The notes under the pieces were generated by a model. The model had not been told where the DNA came from. It was given only the letters and a program-made list of their open reading frames with translations, and did not search any database. Both the position numbers and the translations under genes were made by a program. A stretch of DNA of 64,000 nucleotides from Deltaproteobacteria bacterium (GTDB taxonomy: Bacteria; Desulfobacterota; JAENJC01). The stretch's first letter is position 1, and the number at the start of each line of letters is the position of its first letter. The stretch is taken from NCBI GenBank assembly GCA_030646755.1, contig JAUSKU010000076.1, positions 5,162-69,161 of the forward strand. Reading direction: 5' to 3'. This document shows, piece by piece, positions 351 through 48,924 of the stretch.

Positions 351-590
351 ATGAAACGGTTCCTGAAAGTCATTTATGCAGGTTGGATGAAGTTCGCCCA
401 TATCCTGGGTTGGGTAAATACGAGGATAATCCTTACCCTTGTCTATCTCATTATATTTACCCCCCTTGCCCTTATCTTCAGGCTGATAGGAAAGGATCCG
501 ATGGATAGGCGACTTGAGAAAGGTAACAGCTATTGGGTAAAAAGGGAGCAAAAGGTCTTCAGGCAAGAGGATTACCGGAGGCAGTTCTGA
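351..590 (+). CDS. small two-TM membrane protein of the kind found next to NodU/CmcH carbamoyltransferases (SxtJ-like); hypothetical
   Basis: ATG at 351 preceded by an A/G-rich stretch. A hydrophobic 79-aa product lies immediately upstream of and overlapping the carbamoyltransferase gene. The family assignment is from memory of sxtJ/sxtK-like neighbours, not from a search. Confidence 0.4.
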   Translation: MKRFLKVIYAGWMKFAHILGWVNTRIILTLVYLIIFTPLALIFRLIGKDPMDRRLEKGNSYWVKREQKVFRQEDYRRQF

Positions 591-2506: not shown

Positions 2507-3543
2507 AGTTTAAAAATATACTGATAGGAATAACAATATCTGTTTTCAGTATACTGTTGTCCTTTGCCGTTGCGGAGATTGCTGTCCGCATTTTATATCC
2601 CGGCATAATACCGAGCACAAAGTACGACTGGAGCTCAAGGCATAAGGGATATAAGCTTGAGAAGCCTCATACCACCTTCAGGATTGTAGTCCTTGGAGAC
2701 TCTTTTACATTCGGACAAGGTGTTAGTAGGGATGAGACCTTTCCAAAGAGGCTGGAATCAATGCTCAACAGTTACGGCGGAAGAATCAGGTTTGAGGTAG
2801 TTAATTTAGGGTTTTGCGGGTTGGAAACCAGAGGAGAACTTGAGTTACTCACCCAGGCAGGGATTAATCCTGAGACTTGGCAGCCGGACGAGAGATACCG
2901 TGGGTTGGCATATCAGCCGGATCTGATAATACTTGAATATACCCTGAATGATTCTTCTACGAGTGGAAGGACGCTGGAACAGATAAAGAAGTTTGATGAC
3001 CAATGGAGGAGAGGAGATGTTGTCATAAGGCCCAATAACGGAGCATACAGCCTTCCTGTGCCTGCCAAAGTTGATAAATTTTTGACGGTAAATTCCAGAC
3101 TTTACCTCTTTTCCCTTGATAGATACAATCAGATATTGGGGAGGCTTGGCTTGAGGGAGGCGGGTGACTCTGCTATAAATAGTATGCTAAGCCGTTATGA
3201 AGACAGTTTCGATGGATGGGTAAATGTTAAACAATCATTGTCTGAAATGGCACAGGTTGCCAAAATGAATGATCTGCCTATAGTCTTGGCCATCTATCCC
3301 CAATTAATACAATTAGACAATTATCCTTTTAAAGGAATCCATCAAAAGGTAAAATGGGTAGGGGATGTCTGGGGATTCCATACCCTGGATCTATTTCCTG
3401 CGTTTGAAGGAAAGAACGGAGCCTCCCTTTGGGTCACTCCATCTGACGGGCACCCCAATGCCGATGCCCATGAAATAGCAGCAAAGGCAATATTCTATTA
3501 TCTTACAAAAGAAGGGTTGATCCCGTATCATAAGGGAGGATAG
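2503..3543 (+). CDS. SGNH/GDSL-family hydrolase (putative sugar O-acyl esterase/transferase), paralog A
   Basis: An N-terminal TM helix is followed by a RIVVLGDSFTFGQGV GDSL block. A TTG at 2503 overlaps the upstream stop (the ORF track extends it to 2479). The product is ~45% identical by eye to the 36509..37549 product. Confidence 0.7.
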   Translation: MKFKNILIGITISVFSILLSFAVAEIAVRILYPGIIPSTKYDWSSRHKGYKLEKPHTTFRIVVLGDSFTFGQGVSRDETFPKRLESMLNSYGGRIRFEVVNLGFCGLETRGELELLTQAGINPETWQPDERYRGLAYQPDLIILEYTLNDSSTSGRTLEQIKKFDDQWRRGDVVIRPNNGAYSLPVPAKVDKFLTVNSRLYLFSLDRYNQILGRLGLREAGDSAINSMLSRYEDSFDGWVNVKQSLSEMAQVAKMNDLPIVLAIYPQLIQLDNYPFKGIHQKVKWVGDVWGFHTLDLFPAFEGKNGASLWVTPSDGHPNADAHEIAAKAIFYYLTKEGLIPYHKGG

Positions 3544-3548
3544 ATAGT

Positions 3549-3707
3549 ATGGGCAAGCTCGCGATATTTAAAGAACTCTGGGGCTTTATGAAGGCCAGGA
3601 AGAAGTGGTGGCTTGGACCGATAATTCTATTGCTGCTTCTACTTGGCATTTTAATAGTCTTTACGGAAAGTTCGGCCTTGGCGCCATTTATTTATGCTAT
3701 CTTCTGA
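3549..3707 (+). CDS. 52-aa single-TM small protein (DUF5989-like), missed by the ORF track because it is under 60 aa
   Basis: ATG at 3549 sits 3 nt after the upstream stop. MGKLAIFKELWGFMKARKKWWLGPIILLLLLLGILIVFTESSALAPFIYAIF matches the conserved small protein commonly co-located with carbamoyltransferase/glycosyltransferase clusters. The assignment is from memory. Confidence 0.5.
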   Translation: MGKLAIFKELWGFMKARKKWWLGPIILLLLLLGILIVFTESSALAPFIYAIF

Positions 3708-3720
3708 GAAAGGAACTACA

Positions 3721-4593
3721 ATGAAGGTCATTATTATCGGAGCATCTGGTCAGGTAGGTGGGGCAATAATGCGCCTTGCGCCTAAGGATTGGGAAACTAC
3801 CGGGACATATAGCGGTAAGCCGAAGCCCGGTCTTATACATCTTGATGTCTCCAACAGGAAAGAGGTATTTGAGGTATTTGAAAAGGTCAGACCCGATGTG
3901 GCGATACTTTCAGCCGCATTTACAAATGTAGACCTATGCGAGACCGATAAGGAGCGGGCAGACGCCGTTAATGTCAGCGGCCCTCTTAATATCTGCGATG
4001 CATCTGTGAAACACGGTTCCAAGATGGTCTATATGTCTACTGATTACGTCTTTGACGGGGAAAACGGGCCTTACAGGGAAGATGATGCTCCGAATCCTCT
4101 CGGGTATTATGCCTGGACAAAGCTTGAAGGGGAACGGATAACGGCCTTTACACCTAATCATCTGATAATAAGGACGACAGGCGTCTACAGCGCTGACCCT
4201 GATTCCTTGAACTTTGTCATGCAGGTGATAAAGAGGCTTGGGGCAGGGGAATCTATGAGGGTTCCGAGCGATCAGTACGGCACCCCCACCCTTGCCGACA
4301 ACCTTGCTGAGGGGATTTTGACCCTTTTAACTCTCGGAAAGACCGGCATTTTTAACGTGGCCGGTTCAGACTTTATGGACAGGTATTCGTTTTCACTCCT
4401 TATTGCAGATATATTCGGTCTTGATAAAACCCTTATTACCCAGATAGACACTCCTTCCCTCGGACAAAAGGCAAGAAGGCCTTTAAGGGCAGGGCTTATA
4501 GTTGAGAAGATCGAAAAAGAGGCCGGAATAAAGATGGTTGGAGCAAGGGAGGGTTTAATGTTTGTCAAGGAGAGGCTCAATGCTTCACGGTAA
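3721..4593 (+). CDS. RmlD-like NAD(P)-dependent sugar nucleotide reductase (dTDP-4-dehydrorhamnose reductase family)
   Basis: [16 protein letters not shown] Rossmann motif and a Y..WTK catalytic pair ([10 protein letters not shown]). The ATG at 3721 has an AAGGA RBS. No rmlABC genes are nearby. Confidence 0.75.
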
Positions 4594-5359
4594 GAAAATA
4601 GTAGTTGTCATGCCTGCATATCATGCGGAAAAGACCCTTGAACAGACTTACAGGGAGATACCTTTTGATGTCGTTGATGACGTCGTTCTTGTTGATGATG
4701 CGAGCAGGGACAATACTGTAAAAAAGGCAAGAGATCTCGGTATTAAGCACGTCATAGTACATGAAAAGAACATGGGTTACGGCGGAAATCAAAAGACCTG
4801 CTATAAGAAGGCATTGGAGCTGGGGGCGGAGATTGTGGTTATGCTTCATCCCGATTATCAATATACTCCTAAGCTGATAACCCCTATGGCATCCATGATA
4901 GCCTCCGGTGAATTTGACGTTGTTCTCGGCTCAAGGATATTAGGCACAGGCGCCTTAAAAGGCGGTATGCCCCTTTATAAGTATATCTCCAATAGGTTTC
5001 TTACGTTAATAGAAAATATCCTTCTTGGATATAAGCTTTCTGAATACCACACAGGCTACAGGGCATTCAGCCGTGAGATTCTGGAGAGGCTTCCTCTCCA
5101 CGAGAATTCAAATGACTTTGTCTTTGACAACCAGATGCTTGCCCAAGCCGTCTTCTTCGGATACAGAATCGGCGAAATAACTTGCCCTACTAAGTATTTT
5201 ACAGATGCATCTTCAATAAATTTCAGGAGAAGCGTTACCTATGGCTTTGGAGTCCTTTTGACGGCCATTAAGTTCAGGATACACAGGATGGGACTTATAG
5301 AGTTTCCTATGTTTACTAAAACAGATAAGAACATGTCAAAAATGGGAGAGTTCAAATAA
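4580..5359 (+). CDS. GT2 glycosyltransferase, ArnC/DPM1-like polyprenyl-phosphate sugar synthase type
   Basis: [18 protein letters not shown]...[12 protein letters not shown]...DYQYTP; the ATG at 4580 follows an AAGGAGAGG RBS. Confidence 0.8.
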
Positions 5360-6333
5360 TGTGCCCTTTTTGTAAAAGCTACAAAACAGGGAAGTTGTTT
5401 GACCTGGATAAAAGGGTATACGGCGACAGATTTTCAATAGTTAAATGCGAGGTATGTGGAATCGCATGGACGGACCCTATCCCGGATGAAAGAGAAATCT
5501 CCAAATTCTACCCGGAGGAATATCATGGCAAGATGGGTAGGCAAAGGTTCATGCCTGTCATGGAGTTTCTGGTCTGGCTTTCGAGAAGCAAAAGGGCCAA
5601 AGAGGTCTCATCCCTTAACTCCGTTTTACCCGGAAAGATATTGGATATCGGTTGCGGAAGAGGCTGGATGATAAGCATCCTTAAAAGGATGGGATGGGAG
5701 GTATACGGCACAGAACTTTCCGTGGAGTCTTCGTCATTTGCAAGGGAAAGTCTCAATTTGAATGTACTTACAAAAAAGGTCGCTGACTGTAATTTCCAAT
5801 CAGGACATTTTGATGTAGTCACACTTTGGCACGTCCTTGAACACCTTCCGGACCCGATCTCAGGCCTCAAAGAGATAAACAGGATATTAAAAAATAAAGG
5901 GGCGTTGGTGGTCGAGGTCCCTGATTTAGGAGGATTTCAGGCGAGGTTATTCGGGAACAAGTGGTTTCATCTGGATTCGCCAAGGCACCTGTTCCATTTT
6001 ACAGATAAAACATTAAAAAGGTGCCTTGAGGATACCGGGTTTAAGGTCATAAAGCGCAGAAACATGTCCTGGGAATACGATCTCTTCGGCTTTGTTCAAA
6101 GTAGTTTAAATCTTCTCTGTTTTAAGTTCGACTATCTTTACAACTTCCTCAGGAGCAGGGATGGAAGAATGATTAAAGGGCCTCCGCTAAGATATATCTG
6201 GGACCTCCTGGCAAGCATTGTTTTATTCCCTTTTCTATTAGCTGTCTCAGTGCCAGTATCTTTAATAAGTTCGGCACTGGGGGCAGGAGGCACCATCAAA
6301 TATCATTGTATAAAAAGGCCTGATTTAAAATGA
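5359..6333 (+). CDS. class I SAM-dependent methyltransferase with an N-terminal Cys4 zinc ribbon
   Basis: CPFCKS...CEVCG ribbon; LDIGCGRGW motif I; FDVVTLWHVLEHLPDP. The start overlaps the upstream stop (TAATG). Confidence 0.75.
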   Translation: MCPFCKSYKTGKLFDLDKRVYGDRFSIVKCEVCGIAWTDPIPDEREISKFYPEEYHGKMGRQRFMPVMEFLVWLSRSKRAKEVSSLNSVLPGKILDIGCGRGWMISILKRMGWEVYGTELSVESSSFARESLNLNVLTKKVADCNFQSGHFDVVTLWHVLEHLPDPISGLKEINRILKNKGALVVEVPDLGGFQARLFGNKWFHLDSPRHLFHFTDKTLKRCLEDTGFKVIKRRNMSWEYDLFGFVQSSLNLLCFKFDYLYNFLRSRDGRMIKGPPLRYIWDLLASIVLFPFLLAVSVPVSLISSALGAGGTIKYHCIKRPDLK

Positions 6334-7955
6334 GAAAGTTTTTATCTAATCTTACCCAACATACCCCATTTCTGATATTCATAACCATAATTTTTTTCTA
6401 TATATTTTACCCTTTCCATTATGAAGAGGGAGGAATTTCTGCGGACGCAGTTTTCGATGCCCAGATAGCAAGAAATATCCTGCTTGGCGATGGTCTTGGG
6501 TGGCAGGCAACGCTCCAACCACCTTTTCATGCAATATTAACATCTGCCGTATATCCATTAACAGGAAGTATACTTATAGGTGGCATCCTGATATCAAAGC
6601 TCATGTGGTGGCTTTTGCCTATTCCTGTTTATATACTGGCAAAGGAGATGTTTGGGACCAAGATTGGACTGACTTCAGCTATCCTTGCTTTTTTTCATCC
6701 TCACTTCAGTTTCTCATCAGGGATGATGGAGCCGACCGTAACCTATCCGACCCTTTTGTTATTTGGCATCTGTTTTATGTGGCATGCATTTTCGAAAGAA
6801 AAGATCTTTTATGCCTTCCTCGGAGGATTGTTTTTTACCTTTTCATACCTTAGTCGTTCGGAGGGGTTATTTATATTTCTCATTTCTCTTTCTGTCTTAT
6901 TATTCATTGCCTTTAAAGACTATTTTAAAACAGGCGCTGTTCACAAAAGATTGCTGATCATAGCTGTTTTAATTATTTCTTTCATCTTATCATCTCTTCC
7001 ATATATCTTATTTTTAAAGGATACCTACGGTAAGGTGGTCCTTTCACCTAAGTCGACTTACGTCCAGACATGGATGAAGTGGAGGATATATCATGATAAC
7101 GATCTTGGCGAGACTGGAAATCCTGACCTCTGGGGCCTGAGTAAAAACGGTAAGCTTATGTGGCAGAAACCTAAAGGAATAGGAGACCTTGTAAGATACC
7201 TCATGTCTCAGCCGGAAAAGAGCCTTAGGGTCTACCTCCTTAACTTCAGCATGCAGATACCGGGAAGGATACCAAACAACTCCGGGCAGTGGCTCTATCC
7301 ACAGGTATATCCCTGGTACTTTGTCATACCGGCCTTTTTCTGGATTGCTTCTCGCAGACGGAAAGAGGATTGGGAAAAAACCATATTCCTGCTATCACCC
7401 TTTTTGATCTTATTTATACTCCCTATATTTTCCGAAGGATGGTGGAAATACCTGCTCCCATATTCCCCTTTTTTGATCATCCTTGGAGTTGCAGGCGTTT
7501 CCGATATATGCGAACGATTCCGTTGGAAGCAACTGCTTCCAGCTTTTACTGTGATTATAGCCATCTATTCCCTCTGGACAGTAAAGGCCAGCCCCCTCGT
7601 AAAACATGGCGATAAAGGAGTTATTGCGAGAGGTTCCATGCTTAATGAACAGATAAAAGCCGGAAAATGGGCGCAAAAACGGTTCAAGGGCATCCAGAAT
7701 TACATGGTCCAGTGGAGCAAGTTGACATATTACCTGAACGGAAGATGGATTGCAAAGCCTGTGACAACATACGATGGGATGATTTGGTATGCAAGGAAGA
7801 ACAGGGTGGATTACATTGTGATCGAGACCAGTGGCAGGGACGAATCGGAAGAGATAATAAGGATCATGGGGAATACAGCTGACCTTGAAGTTGCGGATGT
7901 ATATGAGAGCACGACCAGCAGCTACAGTGTTGTATTTTTAAGGCTCAGAAAATAA
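6330..7955 (+). CDS. ArnT/PMT-like GT-C membrane glycosyltransferase (GT39/GT83-type)
   Basis: A polytopic membrane protein whose first periplasmic loop reads DAVFDAQIARNILLGDGLGWQATLQPPFH, resembling the ArnT DxxYAEIAREML..GDW...KPPL motif. ATGA overlap with the upstream gene. Confidence 0.65.
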   Translation: MRKFLSNLTQHTPFLIFITIIFFYIFYPFHYEEGGISADAVFDAQIARNILLGDGLGWQATLQPPFHAILTSAVYPLTGSILIGGILISKLMWWLLPIPVYILAKEMFGTKIGLTSAILAFFHPHFSFSSGMMEPTVTYPTLLLFGICFMWHAFSKEKIFYAFLGGLFFTFSYLSRSEGLFIFLISLSVLLFIAFKDYFKTGAVHKRLLIIAVLIISFILSSLPYILFLKDTYGKVVLSPKSTYVQTWMKWRIYHDNDLGETGNPDLWGLSKNGKLMWQKPKGIGDLVRYLMSQPEKSLRVYLLNFSMQIPGRIPNNSGQWLYPQVYPWYFVIPAFFWIASRRRKEDWEKTIFLLSPFLILFILPIFSEGWWKYLLPYSPFLIILGVAGVSDICERFRWKQLLPAFTVIIAIYSLWTVKASPLVKHGDKGVIARGSMLNEQIKAGKWAQKRFKGIQNYMVQWSKLTYYLNGRWIAKPVTTYDGMIWYARKNRVDYIVIETSGRDESEEIIRIMGNTADLEVADVYESTTSSYSVVFLRLRK

Positions 7956-7980
7956 CAGGCCCCGCATAGGAGATGTTGCC

Positions 7981-9615
7981 ATGTGGACAGATAAGTTCAG
8001 AAAGGTCAGCGCCGAAGCCTTATGGCTAATATTTTTATTTTTTCTTTCATTAGGGGTGAAGGCGTATCTTCTTTTTGAATTCCCCCATGTAGTATTCCTG
8101 AATGAGGCTGATGCCATGGGTTACTTTGCCATCGCGAAGAGTATTATTAATACATGGGGTTTAGGTGACACGTCCATCCATTTTCCACCTTTTTACCCTT
8201 TCGTAATTGCCATTGCCTCGCTGCTTACCGGGGAGTTTGAGATAGCGGGAAGAGTGGTTTCATGTATTATGGGCTCCCTTCTTGCCTTTCCTATTTACCT
8301 TATCGGCAGGGAACTTTACGGCAAGAGGGTGGGCCTCCTTTCTGCTATAGTGGCGATCTTTCTGGGGACATTTGTTGATCTGTCGCTTCAGCCTCTTACC
8401 CAGATGACATATATTCTGTTACTTATAACCGGCATATATCTCGGTATCATTCTGATTAAAAGCCGCTCCCTTACTCTTCACCTTCTTCTGGGACTTACCT
8501 TTGGCGCTGCATACCTGACCCGACCTGAGGGGTTAGTGCCATTTGCCGTTGTCGGGATGACGGTTTCCATTGCAGCACTCAATGAACCCAGCCTGCCGAT
8601 TAGAAGAAGGGTAAAGAGTATATTTCTCATGCTCCTTGGATTTTCGGTTTTGGCTCTACCTTACATCAACTACCTTCACAACCAGACTGGGATATGGACC
8701 ATAAGCGGGAAATCCAGCGCTGCTGTTATAGGAACCGATGCCTCTGCCAGATTGCTTCCAGGGGGCAAGACCCTCGGCGAGGCCTCACATGGAAAGGTTG
8801 GGCTCGGTGACCTATTCCCAAGCCCAGAGGCCTTTCTTAAGACTTATTGGGGGAACATAACCAGATTCGCAGCAATAATCCCTGATCATTTCCCTGTTAA
8901 ATATTTAATCCTGGCCTTCTCCGGGCTTTTATTTGCGATAAAATCAATATTCGATGCGGAAAAAAGTTTAAGGAAGACAATCGTATTGCAAATATTTATA
9001 TTGCTTGCATGTTTGGCAGCCATTCTCCCTGTCTTTGCCTTTAGTGGCATAGGAATGGCTCCTTCATACTTCTTGCCGTTGTTTTATTTAATCATCCTGT
9101 GGTTTGCGAGGGGAGTGGCAGGTGTTGAGGACCTATTTTTGAATTTTATGAAAAATTTAACAGGTAGTGGATTTTTTGAACGGATCAAAAAGTGGTCATT
9201 ACTCTCATTTTCAGTAGTTCTTTTTTTCAGTTATTCTTCAATTCTGCCTGTTTGGAATGAGATGCACAGCGAAGATTCCAGGGTCTACGCAGCAAGTCAG
9301 GAGTTTTTTCTGAAAGATACTGGAAAGTGGCTGAAAGATAACACATCAAAAGATTCCGCTATTATGTCAAGATGGAGCAACATGGGATTTTATGCGGACA
9401 GGAAGTGGGTTTATATCCCTGACGGGGAGATATCAGAAGTGGTTAACTATGCCAAAGAACATAATGTGAGCCATATAATCATAGACTCCAATGCTATTCC
9501 CCGCAGGAGGCCAAAGCTTGGGGCACTGCTTAATCCTTCTGATTTCGAAGGATTAAGACCTGTCTATGTTAGAGAAAAGTATTGGATAAGGGTTATAATA
9601 TATAAGGTACTGTGA
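7981..9615 (+). CDS. ArnT/PMT-like GT-C membrane glycosyltransferase, paralog of 6330..7955
   Basis: NEADAMGYFAIAKSIINTWGLGD...HFPPFYPF; multi-TM protein. Confidence 0.65.
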   Translation: MWTDKFRKVSAEALWLIFLFFLSLGVKAYLLFEFPHVVFLNEADAMGYFAIAKSIINTWGLGDTSIHFPPFYPFVIAIASLLTGEFEIAGRVVSCIMGSLLAFPIYLIGRELYGKRVGLLSAIVAIFLGTFVDLSLQPLTQMTYILLLITGIYLGIILIKSRSLTLHLLLGLTFGAAYLTRPEGLVPFAVVGMTVSIAALNEPSLPIRRRVKSIFLMLLGFSVLALPYINYLHNQTGIWTISGKSSAAVIGTDASARLLPGGKTLGEASHGKVGLGDLFPSPEAFLKTYWGNITRFAAIIPDHFPVKYLILAFSGLLFAIKSIFDAEKSLRKTIVLQIFILLACLAAILPVFAFSGIGMAPSYFLPLFYLIILWFARGVAGVEDLFLNFMKNLTGSGFFERIKKWSLLSFSVVLFFSYSSILPVWNEMHSEDSRVYAASQEFFLKDTGKWLKDNTSKDSAIMSRWSNMGFYADRKWVYIPDGEISEVVNYAKEHNVSHIIIDSNAIPRRRPKLGALLNPSDFEGLRPVYVREKYWIRVIIYKVL

Positions 9616-9618
9616 GTT

Positions 9619-10797
9619 ATGAATATCCAGCAGATGAGAAATATAGATTCCTTAATTGGAGGGATCGTTTGCCTGCTCTTAGAGATCTCTGAGCGGATCA
9701 AAAGGATATTTTTCAACAGACCTTCCATTCCTTCTGATGTAGAAAATATACTGATTACAAAGTATCTGGGAATGGGGAGTATCCTGCTCGCAACCCCGAT
9801 GTTAAGGAGCTTGCGGTCCAAGTTCCCAAAAAGTAAAATTGTCTTCATGACATTTGACGGCAACGCACAGTTTGCCAGGCAAATTAGCGTGATTGATGAA
9901 GTGATTTCAATAAGAACCAAGACATTGTCATCATTCACAATAGACCTGTTGAGGGCTCTTTTTAAAATAAGACGAAAAAGGTTCGATCTGGTCTTTGACC
10001 TCGAGTTTTTTGCCAGATTTTCTACAATTGTCTCATACCTGAGCGGAGCAAAGATGAGGGTTGGGTACTATCTTCCGAAGTTATGGAGGGGTGACCTCCT
10101 TACCCACCAGGTCCATTTTAACCCGTATAAGCACGTCACAGAGGTTTTTGCGGCGCAGTTAAAATCCATCGGAATAAAGGTAACGGATTTCAGCTTAGTT
10201 CCGCCCGTTCTCAAGGAAGAAAAGGTTGCGAGCGTTCGATCATTGCTCAAAGAAAAGGGCGTTAATGAAGGAGAAAAAATAGTATCGGTAAATGTCAACG
10301 CCAGCGACCTGTCTGTAGAGAGGAAGTGGCCCAGAGAGAGTTTTGTAGAGCTTATAGCTTCTATCATTGAACGGGAAAAAGAGACGAGGATTATCCTTGT
10401 AGGTTCAAAAGGAGAGGTAAAATATGTAAAAAGTGTATATGATTCACTACCTGAAGAAACTAGGGGCAGGGTGATAGATCTTTCTGGGAATCTTGATATA
10501 GAGGAGTTCATAGCGCTTCTCAAGCATAGCGCCCTCTTTATAACCAATGACAGCGGTCCTCTTCATATCGCATCCTCCCTTGGTACGCCTACCGTCTCGT
10601 TCTTTGGGCCCGAGTCTCCATCACTTTACGGACCCGTAGGCAGCCGTAATATGGTTTTCTATGCAGGAATATATTGCAGTCCCTGCCTTAATGTTTATAA
10701 TGCCAAAACTGCAATGTGCAAAGGGGACAATCGCTGCATGAAAGAGATAAAGCCTTCAGAAGTTATAGATACCTTGCTTAAAGAAGGGATGTTATAA
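9619..10797 (+). CDS. GT9-family glycosyltransferase (LPS heptosyltransferase-like) with a Cys-rich C-terminal tail
   Basis: ILITKYLGMGSILLATPMLRSLRSKFPKSKIVFMT and LVGSKGE...ITNDSGPLHIASSLGTPTVSFFGP motifs are typical of GT9. Confidence 0.75.
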   Translation: MNIQQMRNIDSLIGGIVCLLLEISERIKRIFFNRPSIPSDVENILITKYLGMGSILLATPMLRSLRSKFPKSKIVFMTFDGNAQFARQISVIDEVISIRTKTLSSFTIDLLRALFKIRRKRFDLVFDLEFFARFSTIVSYLSGAKMRVGYYLPKLWRGDLLTHQVHFNPYKHVTEVFAAQLKSIGIKVTDFSLVPPVLKEEKVASVRSLLKEKGVNEGEKIVSVNVNASDLSVERKWPRESFVELIASIIEREKETRIILVGSKGEVKYVKSVYDSLPEETRGRVIDLSGNLDIEEFIALLKHSALFITNDSGPLHIASSLGTPTVSFFGPESPSLYGPVGSRNMVFYAGIYCSPCLNVYNAKTAMCKGDNRCMKEIKPSEVIDTLLKEGML

Positions 10798-11687
10798 TGA
10801 CTCGATTCGAGAGGATAATCAGGGCATGTCCCGTATGCGGAGATAAGGATTTTAAGAGGCTGTTTTCCAAGGATGGGCTTGAATTCGTCAAATGTAGAGG
10901 TTGCGGCTTGGTTTACATCAACCCCCAGCCTGCGGACGATGAGATAAGCGCCTTATACTCCGAGGATTACTATAAACCCTGGGGTCTGGATACAGATTCT
11001 TCGGTAGTTTCAGAGATGAAGATCACTACCTTTGACGACAAGCTTACAATGGTCGAGAGGTTCATTAAGAAAGGAAGGATACTCGATATAGGATGTGCCA
11101 CAGGATTCTTCCTTGAGGCTGCGAAGAGGAAGGGATGGGACGTCTTCGGAGTGGAGATATCCCCATACTCTGCAGCAATAGCCCAGGAAAGGTTTGGAAA
11201 AGACAGAGTCTTCAGCGGACCACTGGAAGCGGCATCGTACAAGGACGGTTTTTTCGATGTGGTCTTTATGTCGGATCTTGTAGAGCATGTAAAGGACCTT
11301 GATCTTTTTTTTAAAGAAGTCTTTCGAATAGTAAAGGTTAAGGGAATTATTGCAATAGTGACCCCGAACATAGAAAGCCTGTCTTACAGAATCATGAGAA
11401 AGTTATGGCCTCACCTCAAGATGGAGCATCTCTACTATTTTTCGCCTTCAACGATGAAAAGGCTTCTTGAGAGGGAGGGGTTCAACCCGGTTTACATGTC
11501 CGCTGCAACCAAGGCGTTGAACCTGAGTTATGTAGAAAGGCAGTTTTCAACTTATCCAATGCCATTGTTGACCCCTGCGCTCAAGTGGCTTGCAGCGGTA
11601 TTGCCTGATGGCCTGAAAAACAGGAAGATCATGGTACATACCGGAGAAATATTTGTGATTGCCGAGAGAGTAATTAAAAATGCCTGA
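10797..11687 (+). CDS. class I SAM-dependent methyltransferase with an N-terminal Cys4 zinc ribbon, paralog of 5359..6333
   Basis: CPVCGDK...CRGCG ribbon; LDIGCATGFF motif; FDVVFMSDLVEHVKD. Confidence 0.75.
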   Translation: MTRFERIIRACPVCGDKDFKRLFSKDGLEFVKCRGCGLVYINPQPADDEISALYSEDYYKPWGLDTDSSVVSEMKITTFDDKLTMVERFIKKGRILDIGCATGFFLEAAKRKGWDVFGVEISPYSAAIAQERFGKDRVFSGPLEAASYKDGFFDVVFMSDLVEHVKDLDLFFKEVFRIVKVKGIIAIVTPNIESLSYRIMRKLWPHLKMEHLYYFSPSTMKRLLEREGFNPVYMSAATKALNLSYVERQFSTYPMPLLTPALKWLAAVLPDGLKNRKIMVHTGEIFVIAERVIKNA

Positions 11688-13062
11688 TAAGATCCTACTG
11701 CTGAACCCGCCCGGTAAAAAGTTATATGTCCGGGATTATTACTGCAGCAAGATATCTAAAAGCAACTACCTCTTTCATCCCGTTGACCTACTGATGCTCA
11801 GCGGCAGACTGGCTGAACGGTATGAGGTGCGGCTGATAGATGCCATTGCCGACAGAATAGATGATGCCTCCTGCTTAACTATGATTGATGCCATCTCTCC
11901 AGATGTCATAATTTCATTGATTGGCGCCGTATCTCTTGATGAGGACCTGCCGTTTATAAAAAGACTTGCAAAAGATGGACGGCGTATCGTGGTAAGCGGG
12001 GATATCTCACTGGAAAACACAGAGAAATGGTTGGACGGCTATCCCTTTATAGATGCTGTCATCCTTGACTTCACCTCGGATGACATAATTCATTACCTGA
12101 AAGGTAATCACAGCGCAATCAGCGGCATGGTTTACAGAACAGTGAAGGGGATAAGCAAGACCAATCCGGCAAGACCTAAGAATGAGGCTTTTTTCTTGCC
12201 TATACCGAGACACGACCTATTCTCATCTAAAAACTACCGTTTCCCTTTCGTAAGGCACAAACGGTTTGCTACTGTACTTACTGATTATGGCTGTCCGTTC
12301 AGGTGCTCCTTCTGTGTCATGAGCACCCTCGGTTACAGATACAGAGAGGTTGAAAATGTAATCGAGGAGCTCAAAACATTAAAGAGACTTGGCAAGAAGG
12401 AGATCTTTTTTATAGACCAGACCTTCGGTATAAATAAAAAACGCATCCTTGACTTATGTCAAAGAATGAAGGAGGAGGGGTTCAATCTAGGCTGGGTATG
12501 TTATTCAAGGGTGGACTTAGTAGTTGAAGAGGTGATAAAGGGGATGAAGGAGGCTGGCTGTCACACTATAATCTTCGGCGTAGAGTCTGCCAGTGAGGAG
12601 ATACTGAAAAAATATCAGAAGGGTTACAATAAGACCCAGATAAGGGATGCTTTCAGGCTTTGCAAAAAATACAATATTAGAACAGTTGCTACATTCATCC
12701 TCGGCCTGCCTGAGGAGACGGAAGAAACCGCCAATGAGACGATAGAGTTTTTGAAGGAGTTAGATTGCGACTTCGCCTCATTTAATGTGGCGGTTCCCAG
12801 GATGAATACTCCCTTAAGACAAAAGGCTATCCGGGAGGGGCTCATAACCTCTGACCTGGAGATTATGGACCAGGGAGGCGCTTCCATAGCCATGCCGACC
12901 AGGCACTTGACTATGGAACAGGTTCAGGATCTGAAAAAAAAGGCGATCAGGGGGTTCTATCTGAGACCCTCATATCTATGGAGAAGGTTGAAAGGCGTAT
13001 CGTCTTTGTATGAGCTTAAGGAACAGGTTTCCGAGGGGTTAACTTTGCTGAAGGGGATATAG
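11680..13062 (+). CDS. B12-binding domain radical SAM enzyme (class B), 1 of 3 in tandem
   Basis: N-terminal cobalamin-binding Rossmann-like domain (KILLLNPPGKK...) followed by a CPFRCSFC radical SAM cysteine triad. Confidence 0.8.
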   Translation: MPDKILLLNPPGKKLYVRDYYCSKISKSNYLFHPVDLLMLSGRLAERYEVRLIDAIADRIDDASCLTMIDAISPDVIISLIGAVSLDEDLPFIKRLAKDGRRIVVSGDISLENTEKWLDGYPFIDAVILDFTSDDIIHYLKGNHSAISGMVYRTVKGISKTNPARPKNEAFFLPIPRHDLFSSKNYRFPFVRHKRFATVLTDYGCPFRCSFCVMSTLGYRYREVENVIEELKTLKRLGKKEIFFIDQTFGINKKRILDLCQRMKEEGFNLGWVCYSRVDLVVEEVIKGMKEAGCHTIIFGVESASEEILKKYQKGYNKTQIRDAFRLCKKYNIRTVATFILGLPEETEETANETIEFLKELDCDFASFNVAVPRMNTPLRQKAIREGLITSDLEIMDQGGASIAMPTRHLTMEQVQDLKKKAIRGFYLRPSYLWRRLKGVSSLYELKEQVSEGLTLLKGI

Positions 13063-13064
13063 AT

Positions 13065-14489
13065 ATGGCGCGCGTAGCATTTGTACAGAATATGGCATTT
13101 GAATACCTTGGAGTTATGTACATATCCGCCATGCTGAAAAAGCACGGACACAAGGTGGAGATGTTCATTGTAGGGAAGAACGAAGAGAAGACGATAGAAG
13201 AGATTTCATCCTTCAAGCCAGACCTGGTCGGATTTCCATGTACTACGGGGGTGCACAGGTGGGCTCTTAAGTTCGCTGGGAAGATGAAGTTGAGGGTGCC
13301 ATGTAAGGTGATCTTCGGAGGTGCCCATGCAACATACTTCCCTGAAGTCATCAACGACCCCCAGGTAGACATCATCTGTCGAAGCGAAGGGGAGTATGCA
13401 GCCCTTGAGATAGCCGATAAGATAGACAGGGGTTCCGACATCTCAGACACCTTAAACTGTTGGGTGAAGGTGAACGGGTTGGTTGTAAAGAACGACCAGC
13501 GCCCCCTCGTTGAAAACCTCGATGAACTTCCGTTCCCTGACAGGGAACTATATATAGGCAAATACCCATACCTCAAGAGGTCGCAGAAGGCATTCATAGG
13601 CGGAAGGGGTTGCCCCTTTGACTGCACATTCTGTTTTAACCATGCCCTTATTAAGCTATACAAGGGAAAGGGCAAGGTGGTGCGATACAGGAGCGTAGAC
13701 AACCTTATCGCTGAAATTAAAGAGGTCAGGGATAGATACGGTCTGAGAACGGTGTACATGCAGGACGACACCTTCATCCTCAACAAGAAGTGGGTTGCGG
13801 AGTTTGCGGAAAAATACAAGAGGGAGGTAGGGCTGCCGTTTGTCTGCCTTATAAGGGCTGATCTCGCGGACGAGGAGATGATAAAGAAACTTGCTGAGGC
13901 GGGATGCAAGAATGTCTTCTTTGGTGTTGAGGCAGGCTCCGAAGACCTGCGCAATTCCCTACTGAAAAAGAAGGTAACCGATGAGGAGATTAGGAGTGTT
14001 GCTGCACTTCTTAAAAAATATGGGATGAAGTTCAGGACCTACAACATGCTTGGGCTGCCTGGAGAGACCCTCGAAGACGCATTCAGGACTGTAACGATCA
14101 ATGCAGAGATAGGGACGGATTATCCGTGGTGTGCACTTTTCCACCCCTTTCCAGGAACTGAACTGGCGGAATATGCAAAGGAAAAGGGGCTTCTTGATGC
14201 ATCCGTGGATACCGCAAACCCTTCATTTTTCAAGGACAGTATCATAAAGTCCGAACACAAGAGGGAGCTTGTTAATCTCCAGAAGCTCTTTTTCTATGGT
14301 GTGAAGTTTCCAAGGAGCATGCCGCTGATAAAAAGGTTGATACGTCTGAGGCCCAATATCTTTTTTGACTTAGCCTTCCTTGCCAGTTACGCTTGGTGCT
14401 ATCTGCTCAGTGAAAACCTCACATTAAGAGAGATGCTCTCCGTTGGTTTCAGGAACGTCAAGGGGTTCTTCTTCTCAAAAGGGGACTGA
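13065..14489 (+). CDS. B12-binding domain radical SAM enzyme (class B), 2 of 3
   Basis: MARVAFVQNMAFEYLGVMYISAMLKKHGHKVE B12-like domain; GGRGCPFDCTFC radical SAM motif. Confidence 0.8.
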   Translation: MARVAFVQNMAFEYLGVMYISAMLKKHGHKVEMFIVGKNEEKTIEEISSFKPDLVGFPCTTGVHRWALKFAGKMKLRVPCKVIFGGAHATYFPEVINDPQVDIICRSEGEYAALEIADKIDRGSDISDTLNCWVKVNGLVVKNDQRPLVENLDELPFPDRELYIGKYPYLKRSQKAFIGGRGCPFDCTFCFNHALIKLYKGKGKVVRYRSVDNLIAEIKEVRDRYGLRTVYMQDDTFILNKKWVAEFAEKYKREVGLPFVCLIRADLADEEMIKKLAEAGCKNVFFGVEAGSEDLRNSLLKKKVTDEEIRSVAALLKKYGMKFRTYNMLGLPGETLEDAFRTVTINAEIGTDYPWCALFHPFPGTELAEYAKEKGLLDASVDTANPSFFKDSIIKSEHKRELVNLQKLFFYGVKFPRSMPLIKRLIRLRPNIFFDLAFLASYAWCYLLSENLTLREMLSVGFRNVKGFFFSKGD

Positions 14490-14507
14490 CACATACCCCT
14501 TCATGCA

Positions 14508-15962
14508 TTGTCTGGAGGTAAATCTATTTTGAAGACTATCGTATTTGTGAGTCCTCCGCTAACCTTAAGGGAAAGGTACGGTGTAGACCGTCAGAGCGGC
14601 GGGGAGACAATGCCGCTGGGCCTCGCCTTTCTTGCAGGGGTTACGCGGCGCGAAGGTTACGAGACGTATATAGTAGATGCGGAGGTCCTTGGCCTTACTC
14701 CTGAGGGAGCGTCTGAGGCCATAATGCGGCATAACCCGGATGTGGTCGGTTTTACTGCGGTAACGATATCGGTACACCATGCCGCTACCGTAGCCAGACT
14801 AATAAAGAACATTGATAATAAGGTTATAACTCTCGTGGGCGGACATCACATATCTGCGGTCCCCAGTGAGACGATGAAGCTTTTCCCTGAGTTCGACATA
14901 GGCGTGCTTGGTGAAGGAGAAGTAACTATTGTGGAGCTCCTTGACGCCCTGAAAAATGGCCGCAACCTGAAAGATGTGAAGGGCCTTATCCTGAGGGAAG
15001 GAGATGGCTTTTACTTAACAGGGAAAAGAGAGCGCTTGAAAGAGCTTGACTCGCTGCCCTTGCCTGCATGGGACCTCCTTCCAAAAATCTCCGAATACTA
15101 CTGCCCTCCCGTGCACACGGTAAAGAAGCTGCCTGCAACCAACCTGGTCACCTCAAGGGGGTGTCCCGGACAGTGTGTCTTCTGCGCTAGGACCGTATAT
15201 GAAAACAAGGGCACGTATTTCACTGCGGCCCGGGTCATGGAGATGATCAAGGACCTGTATCATAATTACGGCATCAGGGAGATACAGTTCAGGGACGACA
15301 ACTTTACCGTCTTCAGGAAAAGGCTTCTGGAGTTATGCGAAAATTTGAAGGAGGCAAGGCTCGACCTGGCATGGTCCTGTACGGGAAGGGTGGATACTGT
15401 TACGCCTGAGACACTTAAGGCTATGAAAGAAGCAGGGTGCTGGCAGATATGGTACGGTATAGAGAGCGGCTCACAGAGGATTCTTGACCTTGTGCAAAAG
15501 GGGACCACTATAGAGGGAATAAGAGAAGCAGTGAGGTGGACAAAGGATGCCGGTATAAACCCTTGCGGTTTCTTTATAATCGGACATCCAGGTGAGACAA
15601 AGGAGTCGATAAATGAGACCATAGATTTTGCCGTAAACCTCGATCTTGCAGAGTGCCACGCAAGCTTTATGACTCCCTTCCCTGGTTCGGAGCTTTATAT
15701 TACTTACGAAAAATACGGCGCCTTTGAAAACGACTGGAAAAGATTAAACGGATGGACCCCCATGTTTGTTCCATACGGCCTTACTAAAGAAGAGATGAAG
15801 TATTATTCGAACAAATTTCACAAGAGGTTCTTCTTTAGACCGAAAATAATAATCTCATATCTCTTTAAGATACGGAGCTGGAAACACCTTGCTGTTTACA
15901 TGCAGGGATTCCGGGCGCTCCTGAGCTTCCTTAGCAAGAAAGAAAAGAATACGGCCCAATAA
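14508..15962 (+). CDS. B12-binding domain radical SAM enzyme (class B), 3 of 3. The start is TTG 14508, or TTG 14529 with a GGAGGT RBS.
   Basis: ILKTIVFVSPPLT...; SRGCPGQCVFC motif. Confidence 0.8.
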   Translation: MSGGKSILKTIVFVSPPLTLRERYGVDRQSGGETMPLGLAFLAGVTRREGYETYIVDAEVLGLTPEGASEAIMRHNPDVVGFTAVTISVHHAATVARLIKNIDNKVITLVGGHHISAVPSETMKLFPEFDIGVLGEGEVTIVELLDALKNGRNLKDVKGLILREGDGFYLTGKRERLKELDSLPLPAWDLLPKISEYYCPPVHTVKKLPATNLVTSRGCPGQCVFCARTVYENKGTYFTAARVMEMIKDLYHNYGIREIQFRDDNFTVFRKRLLELCENLKEARLDLAWSCTGRVDTVTPETLKAMKEAGCWQIWYGIESGSQRILDLVQKGTTIEGIREAVRWTKDAGINPCGFFIIGHPGETKESINETIDFAVNLDLAECHASFMTPFPGSELYITYEKYGAFENDWKRLNGWTPMFVPYGLTKEEMKYYSNKFHKRFFFRPKIIISYLFKIRSWKHLAVYMQGFRALLSFLSKKEKNTAQ

Positions 15963-16025: not shown

Positions 16026-17858
16026 GTGGTGTTGTATGCCGACACGATATCTCTGTTCTTCTATTACGACGACTTTGAGCGCCTCAGGGATGTAATAGCA
16101 GGCCAGGGTAATCCTTTTTTTATCTTTACACCTATTTATCGTCCCGGGGTTGCCTACTTCACCCCTATCTTTTATTTGTTTTTTGGCTCCTGTTATAAGC
16201 TCTTCGGTTTTAACCCGACCCCCTTTCACTTAATGAGTATAATCACCCATATCGTCAATTCAAGCCTTGTATGCTATTTTACCTTCCTTCTAACCAGGCA
16301 GAGATTTTTGGCAATGACAGCGGGAATCGTGTTTGCTATAAGTTTTAATATTGTTGATGCCGTTATCTGGCCATCGGCCTATGCAGACCCGATAGCCTTC
16401 CTGTTTTCTATCACGGCCCTCATAGGATTTTATAAATATTTAAAAACACCCAAATCGGCTTATTACGTCATAACCATTATATTTTTCATCCTTGCGCTTT
16501 CTGCAAAGATACAAGCCATGTTTCTACCGATAGGCTTGTTCGTGACAGAACTATATTACTTGACCACCGTGCAACAGAAGTTCAAAACCGCAGTGTTGAT
16601 CAAGTATCTGCCATTTATCATATTGAACCTCGTTTATCTGCTTCTTTTAAAGATCTTTGCCCCTCCCCTCGATGCAGGCTCAATAATTAACCTGAGCACG
16701 ATTTTATCGAACATTATTATAATCCCCCTGCTCTATATAATCCCGGAAGGGATATTGCCGCATTCTATCTTATATCCTCTTATAATTGATATTGGTCTGT
16801 TTGTTATACTACTCGTATTATTTTTCCGGCATTCAGCTAAGAATAACCTAATATGGTATGGGCCTGCCTTGCTGTTTATGGGGATATTGGCGCTGGTCCC
16901 TCTTAAGTGGAACTTCCCTTTGTATCCAGACCCAATGAATGAGAGCATCAGACACCGTCTTTACCTCGGTAACCTTGGATTTTCTATACTCGCAGGGGTG
17001 ATTATTCATGAGATATATCTTTTGACCTCGAATAGACTTACAAGGAGGGCGCTCTTTGTTTGCGGCCTGTTTGTCTTTCTTGCTCTAAATCTGAGTCAGT
17101 TATACAGGATAAAATCAGCATATATAAAAGTGACCTCGGATACCGAAAAGTCGCTTAATCAACTCAGAGAGTTGATTACTCAACTTCCGATTGAAAAAAG
17201 AAATATCTATATAGTGAATTTTCCACCTAACCAAGGGTTTGGAGTATCTATACAGAAACTCTTTCTGAATATAAAGGGGCTGAATCTTGGATTATGGCCT
17301 ACCGAGATACCTATAGGGTTGCCGGAAGATAGCCTTCAGATCTATTTGCATCTCAATGGCAACATATATGACCGCAATAGCAATGTTAGGAATGTTGCTT
17401 CAACTGCATGGGAGCATTTATACTCCGGCCAGTTTCTTCTGCTGACGGGGAAACAAGCAGATGCGGTGGAAGAGTTGCGAATGGCTTCAACAAATAGCTC
17501 ATGGGGTGATGGGAAAATTCATCATATTTTAGGTGTCACCTATCTTGGATTAGGGGAAAAAGAGCAGGCAATCGAAGAATTAAACAAGGCAATATTGAAT
17601 AATAGACGATATCCTGAAATTTATTCTTTACTTGGGACGTTGTATTTTGAAAAAGGAGATATTAACAGGGCTATTGAAAACCTTGGGCTTGCATTAAAAT
17701 CTAATCCTGCGGATTTCAAGATAATGGAGGATCTGGCTCTTATATATGAGGCTAAAGGAGAGATCCAGAAAGCAAGAATTTTATTTAAAAAGGCATTGTC
17801 ATTTGAGAGCAGACCAGAGTATAGGCGACAGATTGAGGAAAAGTTGCACAAGCACTGA
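16026..17858 (+). CDS. TMTC-like membrane protein: DUF1736-type multi-TM domain plus C-terminal TPR repeats (putative GT-C O-mannosyltransferase-like)
   Basis: The membrane domain aligns by eye with the 57474 and 59292 products (FHLMSIITHIVNSSLVCYFTFLL vs NWHPLTMISYALDYSIWGL...). The C-terminal 150 aa are TPR-like (GDGKIHHILGVTYLGLGEKEQAIEELNKAI...). GTG/alternative start. Confidence 0.55.
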   Translation: MVLYADTISLFFYYDDFERLRDVIAGQGNPFFIFTPIYRPGVAYFTPIFYLFFGSCYKLFGFNPTPFHLMSIITHIVNSSLVCYFTFLLTRQRFLAMTAGIVFAISFNIVDAVIWPSAYADPIAFLFSITALIGFYKYLKTPKSAYYVITIIFFILALSAKIQAMFLPIGLFVTELYYLTTVQQKFKTAVLIKYLPFIILNLVYLLLLKIFAPPLDAGSIINLSTILSNIIIIPLLYIIPEGILPHSILYPLIIDIGLFVILLVLFFRHSAKNNLIWYGPALLFMGILALVPLKWNFPLYPDPMNESIRHRLYLGNLGFSILAGVIIHEIYLLTSNRLTRRALFVCGLFVFLALNLSQLYRIKSAYIKVTSDTEKSLNQLRELITQLPIEKRNIYIVNFPPNQGFGVSIQKLFLNIKGLNLGLWPTEIPIGLPEDSLQIYLHLNGNIYDRNSNVRNVASTAWEHLYSGQFLLLTGKQADAVEELRMASTNSSWGDGKIHHILGVTYLGLGEKEQAIEELNKAILNNRRYPEIYSLLGTLYFEKGDINRAIENLGLALKSNPADFKIMEDLALIYEAKGEIQKARILFKKALSFESRPEYRRQIEEKLHKH

Positions 17859-48444: not shown

Positions 48445-48924
48445 ATGCGTAAGAAGCTGCTGTATCTGATATTGTTGCTCTTATTAACATATGGATGTAA
48501 GGGCAAGGAGGTCGTAGGCACAACTGCTGTTGATTTTGTTCTTGAGGGGATCAGCGGAGGACAGATTACATACTCAGAACTAAAAGGCAGGCCTGTACTC
48601 CTTTACTTTTTTGCATCCTGGTGAGTACGCTGCAAAGACGAACTCCCTCTGGTCGAGAGGGCATATAAAAACCATAAAGATAAAGGGTTGCAGATAATAG
48701 GGATCGGCTTCCAGGACACAAGGGAAAATATCAGAAATTATGCTAATGAAAATAAACTCCCATATCCTGTAGCATACGATGACGAGAACAAAGTTGCCTC
48801 CTCTTACGGCCTTCCGTACGGTGCCGGCGTTATATTTATATCAAAGGACGGGATCGTGACAGGCAGGTTCAGAAGCGGCTTCACGGAACCTGACTTCGAA
48901 AAAGAACTGAAAAAGATGCTATGA
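48445..48924 (+). CDS. thioredoxin-fold (TlpA/ResA-like) thiol:disulfide oxidoreductase selenoprotein with a UxxC redox motif; in-frame UGA at 48622..48624
   Basis: ATG at 48445 gives signal peptide MRKKLLYLILLLLLTYGC, then ...PVLLYFFASW-U-VRC... It continues in the same frame as ORF-track 48688..48924. A hairpin ccctct-GGUCG-agaggg lies 21 nt downstream of the UGA as a SECIS candidate. Confidence 0.6.

Follow-up and report, generated by a model that had tools for sequence, protein, structure and literature searches.

A 64,000-nucleotide stretch of contig JAUSKU010000076.1 (assembly GCA_030646755.1, positions 5,162 to 69,161 of the forward strand; hereafter the window), from a metagenome-assembled genome (MAG) labelled 'Deltaproteobacteria bacterium', contains three tandem genes encoding radical S-adenosylmethionine (SAM) proteins, here called R1, R2, and R3, behind a run of glycosylation genes. 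A first-pass annotation of this DNA read them as cobalamin (B12)-binding paralogs and suggested iterative or multi-site C-methylation of a sugar or lipid, and the locus raises the question of whether three neighboring enzymes of this class share one chemistry and on what they act. Judged from sequence comparison, R1, R2, and R3 are three anciently separated orthologous groups in the HpnJ/AprD4-like branch of the B12-type radical SAM enzymes; R2 and R3 look cobalamin-dependent and R1 does not, and it is about an even call that the trio belongs to a cell-envelope glycoconjugate cassette, where it would modify, by radical chemistry, a sugar that is nascent or linked to a lipid. The sequences of R1 and R2 match those of GenBank proteins MDO8446182.1 and MDO8446183.1, respectively, without a difference, both of them from an 83-kb contig; among named organisms, the closest relatives belong to Nitrospirota (Ca. 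Magnetoovum, Ca. Magnetobacterium, and Thermodesulfovibrionales).

Three Tandem Radical SAM Genes

The three plus-strand open reading frames (ORFs) were found exactly where the first-pass annotation had placed them (Table 1), and the cysteine triads that it quoted are present, specifically CPFRCSFC at residue 205 of R1, CPFDCTFC at residue 183 of R2, and CPGQCVFC at residue 219 of R3. R1, R2, and R3 each contain the Radical_SAM Pfam domain (PF04055; E 1e-26 to 1e-27), which scored 90–96 bits in these proteins and in a distant fourth paralog, R4 (R2 96, R3 92.2); the CxxxCxxC motifs located within the PF04055 core are those of the radical SAM superfamily, and the triad is invariant across the R1 and R3 family alignments. 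The genes are packed as in an operon: R1 starts 8 nt inside the upstream methyltransferase gene, and gaps of only 2 and 18 nt separate R1 from R2 and R2 from R3, a spacing that indicates translational coupling. Because a GGAGG lies at 14514-14518 and the gene is called at 477 aa in L035, a second, independently assembled version of this region, R3 probably starts at the TTG at 14529 rather than at 14508.

Pairwise identities among the three are 32.5% (R1-R2, over 255 aa), 30.1% (R1-R3), and 27.1% (R2-R3), near 30% overall, so that the earlier estimate of less than 30% holds for R2-R3 but not for the two pairs that include R1. The proposal of an old divergence rather than a recent duplication stands, as orthologs in several phyla are 45–98% identical, compared with 27–33% among R1, R2, and R3.

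Cobalamin-Binding Signature

An N-terminal cobalamin-binding domain, which the first-pass annotation had assigned to every ORF, was recovered in R2 and R3 but not in R1. PF02310 matched R2, R3, and R4 at 60.7, 82.8, and 85.7 bits, respectively (Pfam cut-off 32.1), and residues 1–200 of R1 gave no Pfam match even at E ≤ 10. The families behave alike: PF02310 and PF04055 occur together in 119 of the 120 best homologs of R2, and PF04055 occurs alone in 117 of the 120 best homologs of R1. The GGxH-type motif reads FGGAH in R2, VGGHH in R3, and IGGIH in R4, with VSGDI instead in R1; the GEGE-type motif reads SEGE, GEGE, and GEGD in the same three proteins, and R1 has a gap there.

Profile–profile alignment of the R1 and R3 families revealed end-to-end homology (probability 100%, 458 columns, 28% identity), in which an invariant SGD of R1 faces the invariant GG.H of R3, and a three-residue deletion in R1 faces GEGE; the R3 family invariants are G111, G112, H114, G135, and E136. 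In a profile search of the PDB, the corresponding R3 columns aligned to GGPH...GEGE in TokK, GGP...GEGE in MgmA, and GGPQ...GEGE in CysS, all three crystallised with cobalamin, and the N-terminal domain of AprD4 hardly aligned to R3 (2.3 bits). R1 aligned to AprD4 (6FD2) across residues 28–392, N-terminal domain included. AprD4 is a member of the B12-type radical SAM sequence space that does not bind cobalamin (PMC12931638). With PF02310, GG(x)H, and GEGE taken together as the mark of a class-B domain, R2 and R3 carry it and R1 lacks it. Since R1 lacks the cobalamin signature and resembles the cobalamin-independent AprD4, cobalamin-dependent methylation is unlikely for this protein; for R2 and R3, C-methylation is a plausible candidate reaction.

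AlphaFold models of R1 and R3 (predicted local distance difference test, pLDDT, 89.3 and 89, respectively) both have a Rossmann-like N-terminal domain. The top structural match of both is AprD4 (template modeling (TM) score 0.73–0.78; R1 0.77), followed by MgmA in second place and by TsrM, OxsB, TokK, and CysS. Comparison of folds as a means of separating R1 from R3 was set aside as uninformative, since AprD4 ranks first for both models and the cobalamin enzymes come after it.

Family Assignment and the Case for Methylation

All four proteins scored below every cut-off of the curated NCBIfam hidden Markov models (HMMs). The best curated HMM for all three tandem proteins was HpnJ (TIGR03471), with 180.6 bits for R1, 150.9 for R2, and 213.2 for R3 against a cut-off of 577.6. 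Ring contraction of hopanoid-linked glucosamine has been proposed for HpnJ from a knockout, and the enzyme is classed as a non-methylase (PMC9204698, PMC13459092), although it groups with the methylases Fom3 and MoeK5 at stringent thresholds in a sequence similarity network (PMC9204698). The first-pass annotation had taken assignment to a non-methylating subfamily as the outcome that would count against it; the nearest profile does represent a proposed non-methylase, but at 150–213 bits against 577.6 the proteins are neither placed in that subfamily nor kept out of it. The B12-type radical SAM enzymes fall into over 100 sequence groups, most of them without an assigned function (PMC12931638), and according to the same 2026 review the non-methylating members show no clear features that set them apart from the alkylating enzymes (PMC12931638).

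We weighed directly whether all three are cobalamin-dependent class-B C-methyltransferases that, through iterative or multi-site action, place several C-methyl groups on a single sugar or lipid, and consider this unlikely. Among the B12-type radical SAM enzymes characterised so far, methylation predominates by a wide margin (PMC12931638), the cobalamin domains of R2 and R3 are canonical, two class-I methyltransferases in the operon suggest a heavily methylated product, and the clustering of HpnJ with Fom3 and MoeK5 fits the same picture. The R1 family, however, lacks PF02310 and both motifs, and R1 aligns through its N-terminal domain to a cobalamin-independent enzyme; the best HMM neighbor is a proposed non-methylase, and within this cluster methylases and non-methylases are indistinguishable by sequence (PMC12931638). 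Iteration in particular finds little parallel, as iterative methylases such as TokK and CysS employ a single enzyme, and three ancient orthogroups argue for three different reactions. Iterative or multi-site C-methylation is not supported by the present analysis.

Orthologous Groups and Cassettes Across Phyla

The distribution of the three genes was assessed by searching 34 fetched loci with the window proteins (tblastn) and by unbiased clustering of all ORFs in those loci, with GT2 and GT-C glycosyltransferases in the neighborhood counts called by locally built HMMs. R1, R2, and R3 fell into three separate clusters, and the groups travel together. The R3 group, the most widespread of the three, is a large, unnamed family with 46–57% identity across Elusimicrobia, Omnitrophota, Verrucomicrobiota, Planctomycetota, Nitrospirota, several phyla of the Candidate Phyla Radiation (CPR), and one Nanoarchaeota bin, all of them MAGs, and is typically flanked by GT2 and GT-C genes. 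The ortholog in the 'Nanoarchaeota archaeon' bin (L030, NZBI01000014, 10001-11419; 48% identity) would represent either an inter-domain transfer or a binning error.

The glycan and lipid-linked-sugar context is conserved across phyla and is not peculiar to this genome, which bears out the first-pass view of a glycosylation operon. Cassettes were seen in MAGs of Elusimicrobia, Omnitrophota, Verrucomicrobiota, Nitrospirota, Schekmanbacteria, and CPR bacteria, with varying content. Seven Elusimicrobia loci share the order R3-R2-GT9-R1-GTC-MTb (MT_b being the methyltransferase gene that precedes R1 in the window), Verrucomicrobiota have R3, GT9, and R1, and Ca. Magnetoovum has just GT9 (60% identity) and R1 (65%); a Schekmanbacteria MAG has GT2, a radical SAM gene, GT9 (43%), MT_b (43%), R2 (56%), membrane proteins, and YfhO, in that order. 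In Omnitrophota (L012, JAGVOB010000208, 6555-13207), the order is GT9-MT-R1-R3-R2, and identity to the window proteins is 84% for R2, 73% for R1 and GT9, and 56% for R3; such high identity in another phylum, with a lower value for R3 and a changed order, suggests a mosaic locus, part of which was acquired recently by lateral transfer.

GT9 is the most constant partner of R1 and R2: of 13 R1 orthologs, 11 have a GT9 gene no more than 2.5 kb away, as do 9 of 11 R2 orthologs; the GT9 orthologs adjoining them are 35–73% identical, and GT9 partners occur in CPR bacteria too. MT_b orthologs in the cassettes of other phyla share 41–48% identity. Among the 24 R3 orthologs with at least 2.5 kb of sequence on each side, a GT2 gene lies within 2.5 kb in 13, a GT-C gene in 11, either in 15, and both in 9, and 16 of the 24 have one or more further radical SAM paralogs within 6 kb. 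Typical R3 layouts are GT2-R3-GTC in CPR bacteria and GTC-R3-GT2-MT, followed by a GDP-heptose-like gene set, in Nitrospirota-type loci. As part of the envelope-glycan reading, and with the same balanced confidence, the cassette would be modular and horizontally mobile, with GT9, the zinc-ribbon class-I methyltransferase, a small polyprenyl-phosphate-sugar-synthase-type GT2, and a PMT_2-type GT-C as its recurrent parts. At the cassette edge in Elusimicrobia (L005, 17622-18962) and Schekmanbacteria (L038, 1448-2746), a flavin amine-oxidase/NAD_binding_8 protein was observed, a possible redox partner of a radical SAM enzyme.

That the tandem has no functional meaning, with unrelated or decaying paralogs lying beside glycan genes by chance, is extremely improbable. 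Some orthologs are indeed solitary (as in L036), and cassette composition differs between phyla, but the three ORFs are intact, with triads invariant across families, confident AlphaFold models, and spacing that indicates coupled translation, and the same combination recurs in at least five phyla.

Operon Structure in the Window

Upstream of R1, Pfam matches agree with the glycan context described in the first-pass annotation: a carbamoyltransferase, a GDSL protein, an RmlD-like protein, a GT2, a methyltransferase, two PMT_2 proteins, a GT9, and a second methyltransferase (Table 1). The GT9 scored below the equivalog cut-offs for heptosyltransferases (TIGR02195 97.4 versus 134.6 bits, TIGR02201 96.4 versus 170.2, and TIGR02193 65.9 versus 185.3). 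A scan for promoters and terminators at the operon borders gave counts equal to those in shuffled sequence.

Table 1. Radical SAM genes of the window and the genes of the surrounding operon.
Feature	Position	Strand	Evidence and remarks
NodU/CmcH-type O-carbamoyltransferase	533..2506	+	Carbam_trans_N 335, Carbam_trans_C 245 bits; NodU 139.9 vs cut-off 1000; first visible operon gene
GDSL/SGNH hydrolase or acyltransferase-like	2479..3543	+	Lipase_GDSL_2 44.4 bits
RmlD-type NAD(P)H 4-ketosugar reductase	3694..4593	+	RmlD_sub_bind 212.7 bits; TIGR01214 216.6 vs 224.05; no RmlA/B/C nearby
Small GT2, lipid-phosphate sugar synthase type	4562..5359	+	Glycos_transf_2; best NCBIfam AglJ, PpgS, dolichyl-P hexose transferase, all below cut-off
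Class-I SAM methyltransferase MT_a	5359..6333	+	Methyltransf_23 103 bits
GT-C membrane glycosyltransferase (PMT_2), copy a	6330..7955	+	PMT_2 34.3 bits vs 26.1 cut-off
GT-C membrane glycosyltransferase (PMT_2), copy b	7981..9615	+	PMT_2 51.5 bits; 25% identical to copy a
GT9 (heptosyltransferase-family) glycosyltransferase	9619..10797	+	Glyco_transf_9 (PF01075) 94.1 bits
Class-I SAM methyltransferase MT_b, N-terminal Cys4 zinc ribbon	10797..11687	+	Methyltransf_23 90.3 bits
R1	11680..13062	+	460 aa; radical SAM with degenerate AprD4-like N-terminal Rossmann domain; cobalamin binding doubtful
R2	13065..14489	+	474 aa; canonical class-B (B12-binding domain + radical SAM), own orthologous group
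R3	14508..15962	+	484 aa; canonical class-B radical SAM; probable true start 14529
Polytopic membrane protein with C-terminal TPR repeats	16026..17858	+	TPR Pfam matches only; last operon gene
R4, BchE-like class-B radical SAM	48921..50435	+	BchE (TIGR02026) 407.5 bits vs 481.35 cut-off

A 52-aa ORF with a match to Pfam DUF5989 lies downstream of the carbamoyltransferase gene, between the GDSL and RmlD-like genes (3549-3707, plus strand), and is called as a gene in the independent assembly (L035, 1820-1978). The last operon gene, encoding a TPR membrane protein, was considered as a further GT-C and rejected, as it had no significant match to the local PMT_2 HMM. Two tandem paralogs elsewhere in the window (57474-59225 and 59292-61298, plus strand) encode polytopic membrane proteins with C-terminal TPR repeats that are 64% identical to each other and 23–27% identical to this protein. 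A group resembling envelope-glycan genes also lies on the opposite strand (34444-39487); it encodes a 639-aa membrane protein without a Pfam match, a PMT_2 GT-C that carries TPR repeats at its C terminus, and a weakly GDSL-like protein. The operon is followed, 2 kb beyond R3, by another radical SAM gene (17911-20418, plus strand), the fifth of the window and absent from the first-pass annotation. Its product scores well above the TIGR03960 cut-off ('B12-binding radical SAM protein'; 810 bits versus 462) and is a genuine member of that family, fused to TIGR03936/DUF2344; a GalT-like gene and RNase G lie downstream, and the gene was treated as a unit separate from the operon.

Substrate and Proposed Mechanism

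Several observations bear on the substrate. For the GT2s adjoining R3 orthologs, the highest-scoring profiles are those of AglJ, PpgS, dolichyl-P hexose transferase, ArnC, and PgfS (the last with 236 bits in L008), none of which reaches its equivalog cut-off, and the recurrent partnership of GT9, GT2, GT-C, and methyltransferase leads to the hypothesis that the substrate is a lipid-linked hexose or heptose. R3 orthologs in four loci (L003, 4620-9998; L008, 13190-20844; L024; L028) adjoin a GmhA/HddA/GmhB/HddC-like NDP-heptose gene set that looks complete and comprises SIS/GmhA, a GHMP kinase, a GmhB-like HAD phosphatase, an NTP-transferase, a transaldolase-like protein, a GFO/IDH oxidoreductase, an SDR, and an epimerase. 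In genomes with this set, the substrate would probably be a sugar derived from heptose; no genes of the set were found in the window. Two kinds of fusion were observed in CPR (Patescibacteria) loci (L007, 11452-14016 and 5342-7501; likewise L019), one joining PMT_2 to a radical SAM/SPASM protein (854 aa) and the other a B12-type radical SAM protein to a class-I methyltransferase (719 aa). As fusions of the Rosetta-stone type, they connect membrane glycosyltransfer, radical SAM chemistry, and methylation.

The substrate could instead be a protein or peptide side chain (cf. MgmA, Mmp10, and the methylases of ribosomally synthesized and post-translationally modified peptides, RiPPs) or a lipid chain (cf. 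HpnP/R and ladderane-type enzymes), with the glycosyltransferases acting on the same final macromolecule, an arrangement that we regard as decidedly unlikely. MgmA is the second-best structural match, there are sub-threshold matches to ApyD (136–184 bits), the RiPP C-methyltransferase family, MgmA/MJ0865, and the ladderane lipid radical SAM protein, and a 72-aa ORF lies between radical SAM genes in L001; GT-Cs of the PMT_2, TMEM260, and TPR types are, moreover, typically protein O-glycosyltransferases, which makes a protein a plausible final acceptor. The cassettes nevertheless contain no conserved precursor peptide, leader peptidase, exporter, or lipid-biosynthesis genes; their constant partners are GT9, GT2, GT-C, and sugar-nucleotide genes, and sugars are the known or proposed substrates of AprD4, the nearest solved structure, and of HpnJ, the best curated HMM.

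On the preferred reading, that of radical tailoring of a lipid-linked or nascent sugar, the GT2 would load a sugar onto polyprenyl phosphate, and GT9 would add a sugar to the lipid-linked acceptor at the cytoplasmic face. The radical SAM enzymes would tailor unactivated carbons of the lipid-linked sugar or sugars, by analogy with ArnD, between ArnC and ArnT, and with HpnJ on lipid-linked glucosamine. R2 and R3 would attack such carbons with cobalamin and a 5'-deoxyadenosyl (5'-dAdo) radical; C-methylation, the commonest chemistry of the class, is favored a priori, and rearrangement fits the data equally well. For R1, 5'-dAdo radical chemistry without cobalamin is more probable, e.g., an AprD4-type dehydration or deoxygenation. 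The class-I methyltransferases, the carbamoyltransferase, and the GDSL enzyme would supply O-decorations, and the GT-C enzymes would pass the decorated sugar to a periplasmic or surface acceptor.

A number of points weigh against this reading. On the sampling side, every locus was picked because it encodes a protein similar to R3, R1, or R2, and the Elusimicrobia loci are related rather than independent samples; about a third of the R3-ortholog loci have no GT2, GT-C, or GT9 nearby, and the Hydrogenedentota R2 ortholog stands alone. As to the substrate, lipid linkage is inferred from neighboring genes, whose GT2 matches are below cut-off, and no flippase candidate was noticed among the operon genes, with no search aimed at flippases (GtrA or ArnE/F type) having been made. 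As to the chemistry, none can be transferred from a characterised enzyme because no curated threshold was reached, and fold alone cannot discriminate R1 from R3. PF02310 matched three of 120 R1-family members, and R1 may retain residual cobalamin binding. AprD4 works together with a reductase, AprD3 (PMC5461906); the RmlD-type reductase of the window operon could partner an AprD4-like R1 in this way, but no ortholog of it adjoins R1 orthologs elsewhere. Finally, Rfam matched nothing in the window, so that a cobalamin riboswitch is absent, and the annotated ORFs include no cob, cbi, or btu genes; for a 64-kb fragment this is not decisive and neither supports nor refutes cobalamin use.

A bolder form of the same reading is possible but on balance rather doubtful: the R3 family, with R2, would comprise the first radical SAM enzymes shown to modify sugars carried on polyprenyl phosphate, after the GT2 step and before the GT-C step of a three-component glycosylation pathway. 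Many uncultured phyla, CPR bacteria among them, would in this way bear C-methylated or rearranged sugars on their surface glycoconjugates, and R1 would represent a second, envelope-glycan branch of the cobalamin-independent AprD4-type radical dehydratases that works with GT9. If the lipid-linked-sugar hypothesis holds, radical chemistry would join the known modes of bacterial envelope glycan decoration. At present, the result is an annotation-level advance rather than a surprise: it defines three well-conserved orthogroups whose recurrent partners are GT9, the zinc-ribbon methyltransferase, GT-C, and a GT2 of the lipid-phosphate-sugar type. The phyla concerned, such as Elusimicrobia, Omnitrophota, CPR, and Nitrospirota, are represented by metagenomes alone. 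The trio is also a natural comparison set, as a single operon holds two proteins with cobalamin motifs and one without, and could help separate cobalamin-dependent from cobalamin-independent chemistry.

The Distant Fourth Paralog

The first-pass annotation had counted a fourth copy of the same set, co-operonic with a selenoprotein and a DUF2723 transferase. R4 exists at that position beside a thioredoxin ORF containing TGA and a DUF2723 GT-C gene, but it is BchE-like and does not belong with R1–R3. It resembles BchE, the anaerobic Mg-protoporphyrin IX monomethyl ester cyclase, over nearly its whole length (R4 residues 3–460 match profile positions 1–459 of 497), although it falls below the cut-off and there are no photosynthesis genes in the window. 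R4 overlaps the TMEM260-like (DUF2723) GT-C gene by 4 nt, and this pair was considered as a sign of a general link between radical SAM and GT-C proteins and rejected, as relatives 62–69% identical lack it.

Upstream of R4 are genes for a small zinc-ribbon membrane protein and a thioredoxin-fold lipoprotein (ResA/TlpA-like; 48445-48927, plus strand). The latter is interrupted by a single in-frame TGA (48622-48624) in the context FFASW-U-VRC, and its product is likely a UxxC selenoprotein; a hairpin resembling a selenocysteine insertion sequence (SECIS) about 24 nt after the TGA is small and only weakly better than shuffled sequence (z = -1.76), and the homolog in L042 is an uninterrupted ORF of 188 aa. 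In that locus (639-8411), the R4 ortholog is part of a System-II-like cytochrome c maturation set with a B12-type radical SAM, ResB-like, CcsA-like, and zinc-ribbon protein, a probably Cys-type ResA/TlpA thioredoxin, and a multihaem cytochrome; in L039, the ortholog lies among FabF, RpiB, SHMT, and an SLT-TPR protein. In the window itself, a CcsA-like gene lies at 53573-54445 on the minus strand. The R4 family may have to do with haem or cytochrome maturation and not with glycans.

Comparison with Characterised Systems

In the literature searched, nothing relevant was found on B12-type radical SAM enzymes with GT9, GT-C, heptose, or undecaprenyl systems, or with Elusimicrobia cassettes; comparison was made with the nearest characterised enzymes and pathways. 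AprD4, the radical SAM 1,2-diol dehydratase of apramycin biosynthesis (PDB 6FD2; NF033070), is the top PDB match of R1, R2, and R3 by both sequence and structure, and it acts on a glycoside. Like R1, it lacks the cobalamin motifs, and its alignment to R1 spans the R1 N-terminal domain. Identity to R1–R3 is nevertheless only 21–24% (R1 21–22% to 6FD2), R1 reaches 133.3 bits against a cut-off of 500 (NF033070), no conserved reductase partner adjoins the R1 orthologs, and AprD4 is an actinomycete antibiotic enzyme rather than an envelope-glycan enzyme.

R2, R3, and R4 share a Rossmann cobalamin domain and a radical SAM core with the cobalamin enzymes TokK (7KDX), CysS (9N1B), MgmA (9CCB), TsrM (6WTE), and OxsB. 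Structural comparison with these enzymes gave TM-scores of 0.64–0.73, and the GGxH and GEGE motifs match those of TokK, CysS, and MgmA column for column; R1 lacks these motifs. These methylases and OxsB differ in that identity is 15–21%, the C-terminal regions diverge, and their substrates (carbapenem, peptide, protein, or nucleoside) are unrelated to the context seen here. HpnJ is matched at near full length (R3 residues 54–479 to profile positions 48–471 of 472), with the same two-domain architecture, and its proposed substrate, a sugar (glucosamine) on an isoprenoid lipid, parallels the lipid-linked-sugar context proposed for R1–R3. The three proteins are far under its cut-off, however, and are not equivalogs; a scan of the Pfam families of the ORFs found no hopanoid genes (shc, hpn, including hpnH/I/K) in the window or related loci, the partners of R1–R3 are instead GT9, GT2, GT-C, and methyltransferases, and the HpnJ reaction is itself only proposed, from the knockout.

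A pathway-level parallel is three-component lipid-linked glycosylation, as in GtrB/GtrA/Gtr*, ArnC-ArnD-ArnT, PpgS/Rv3779, and PgfS. No radical SAM enzyme was found in these pathways in the literature searched, and the GT2 matches here are below equivalog cut-offs. A small polyprenyl-phosphate-sugar-synthase-type GT2 and a GT-C nonetheless flank the R3 family in many loci, and the window operon has the GT-C component in two PMT_2 proteins above the Pfam cut-off. In the Arn pathway, ArnD modifies the lipid-linked sugar between the GT2 (ArnC) and GT-C (ArnT) steps, the position proposed here for the radical SAM enzymes. Set beside these systems, R1, R2, and R3 are uncharacterised members of a known enzyme class rather than a new kind of system.

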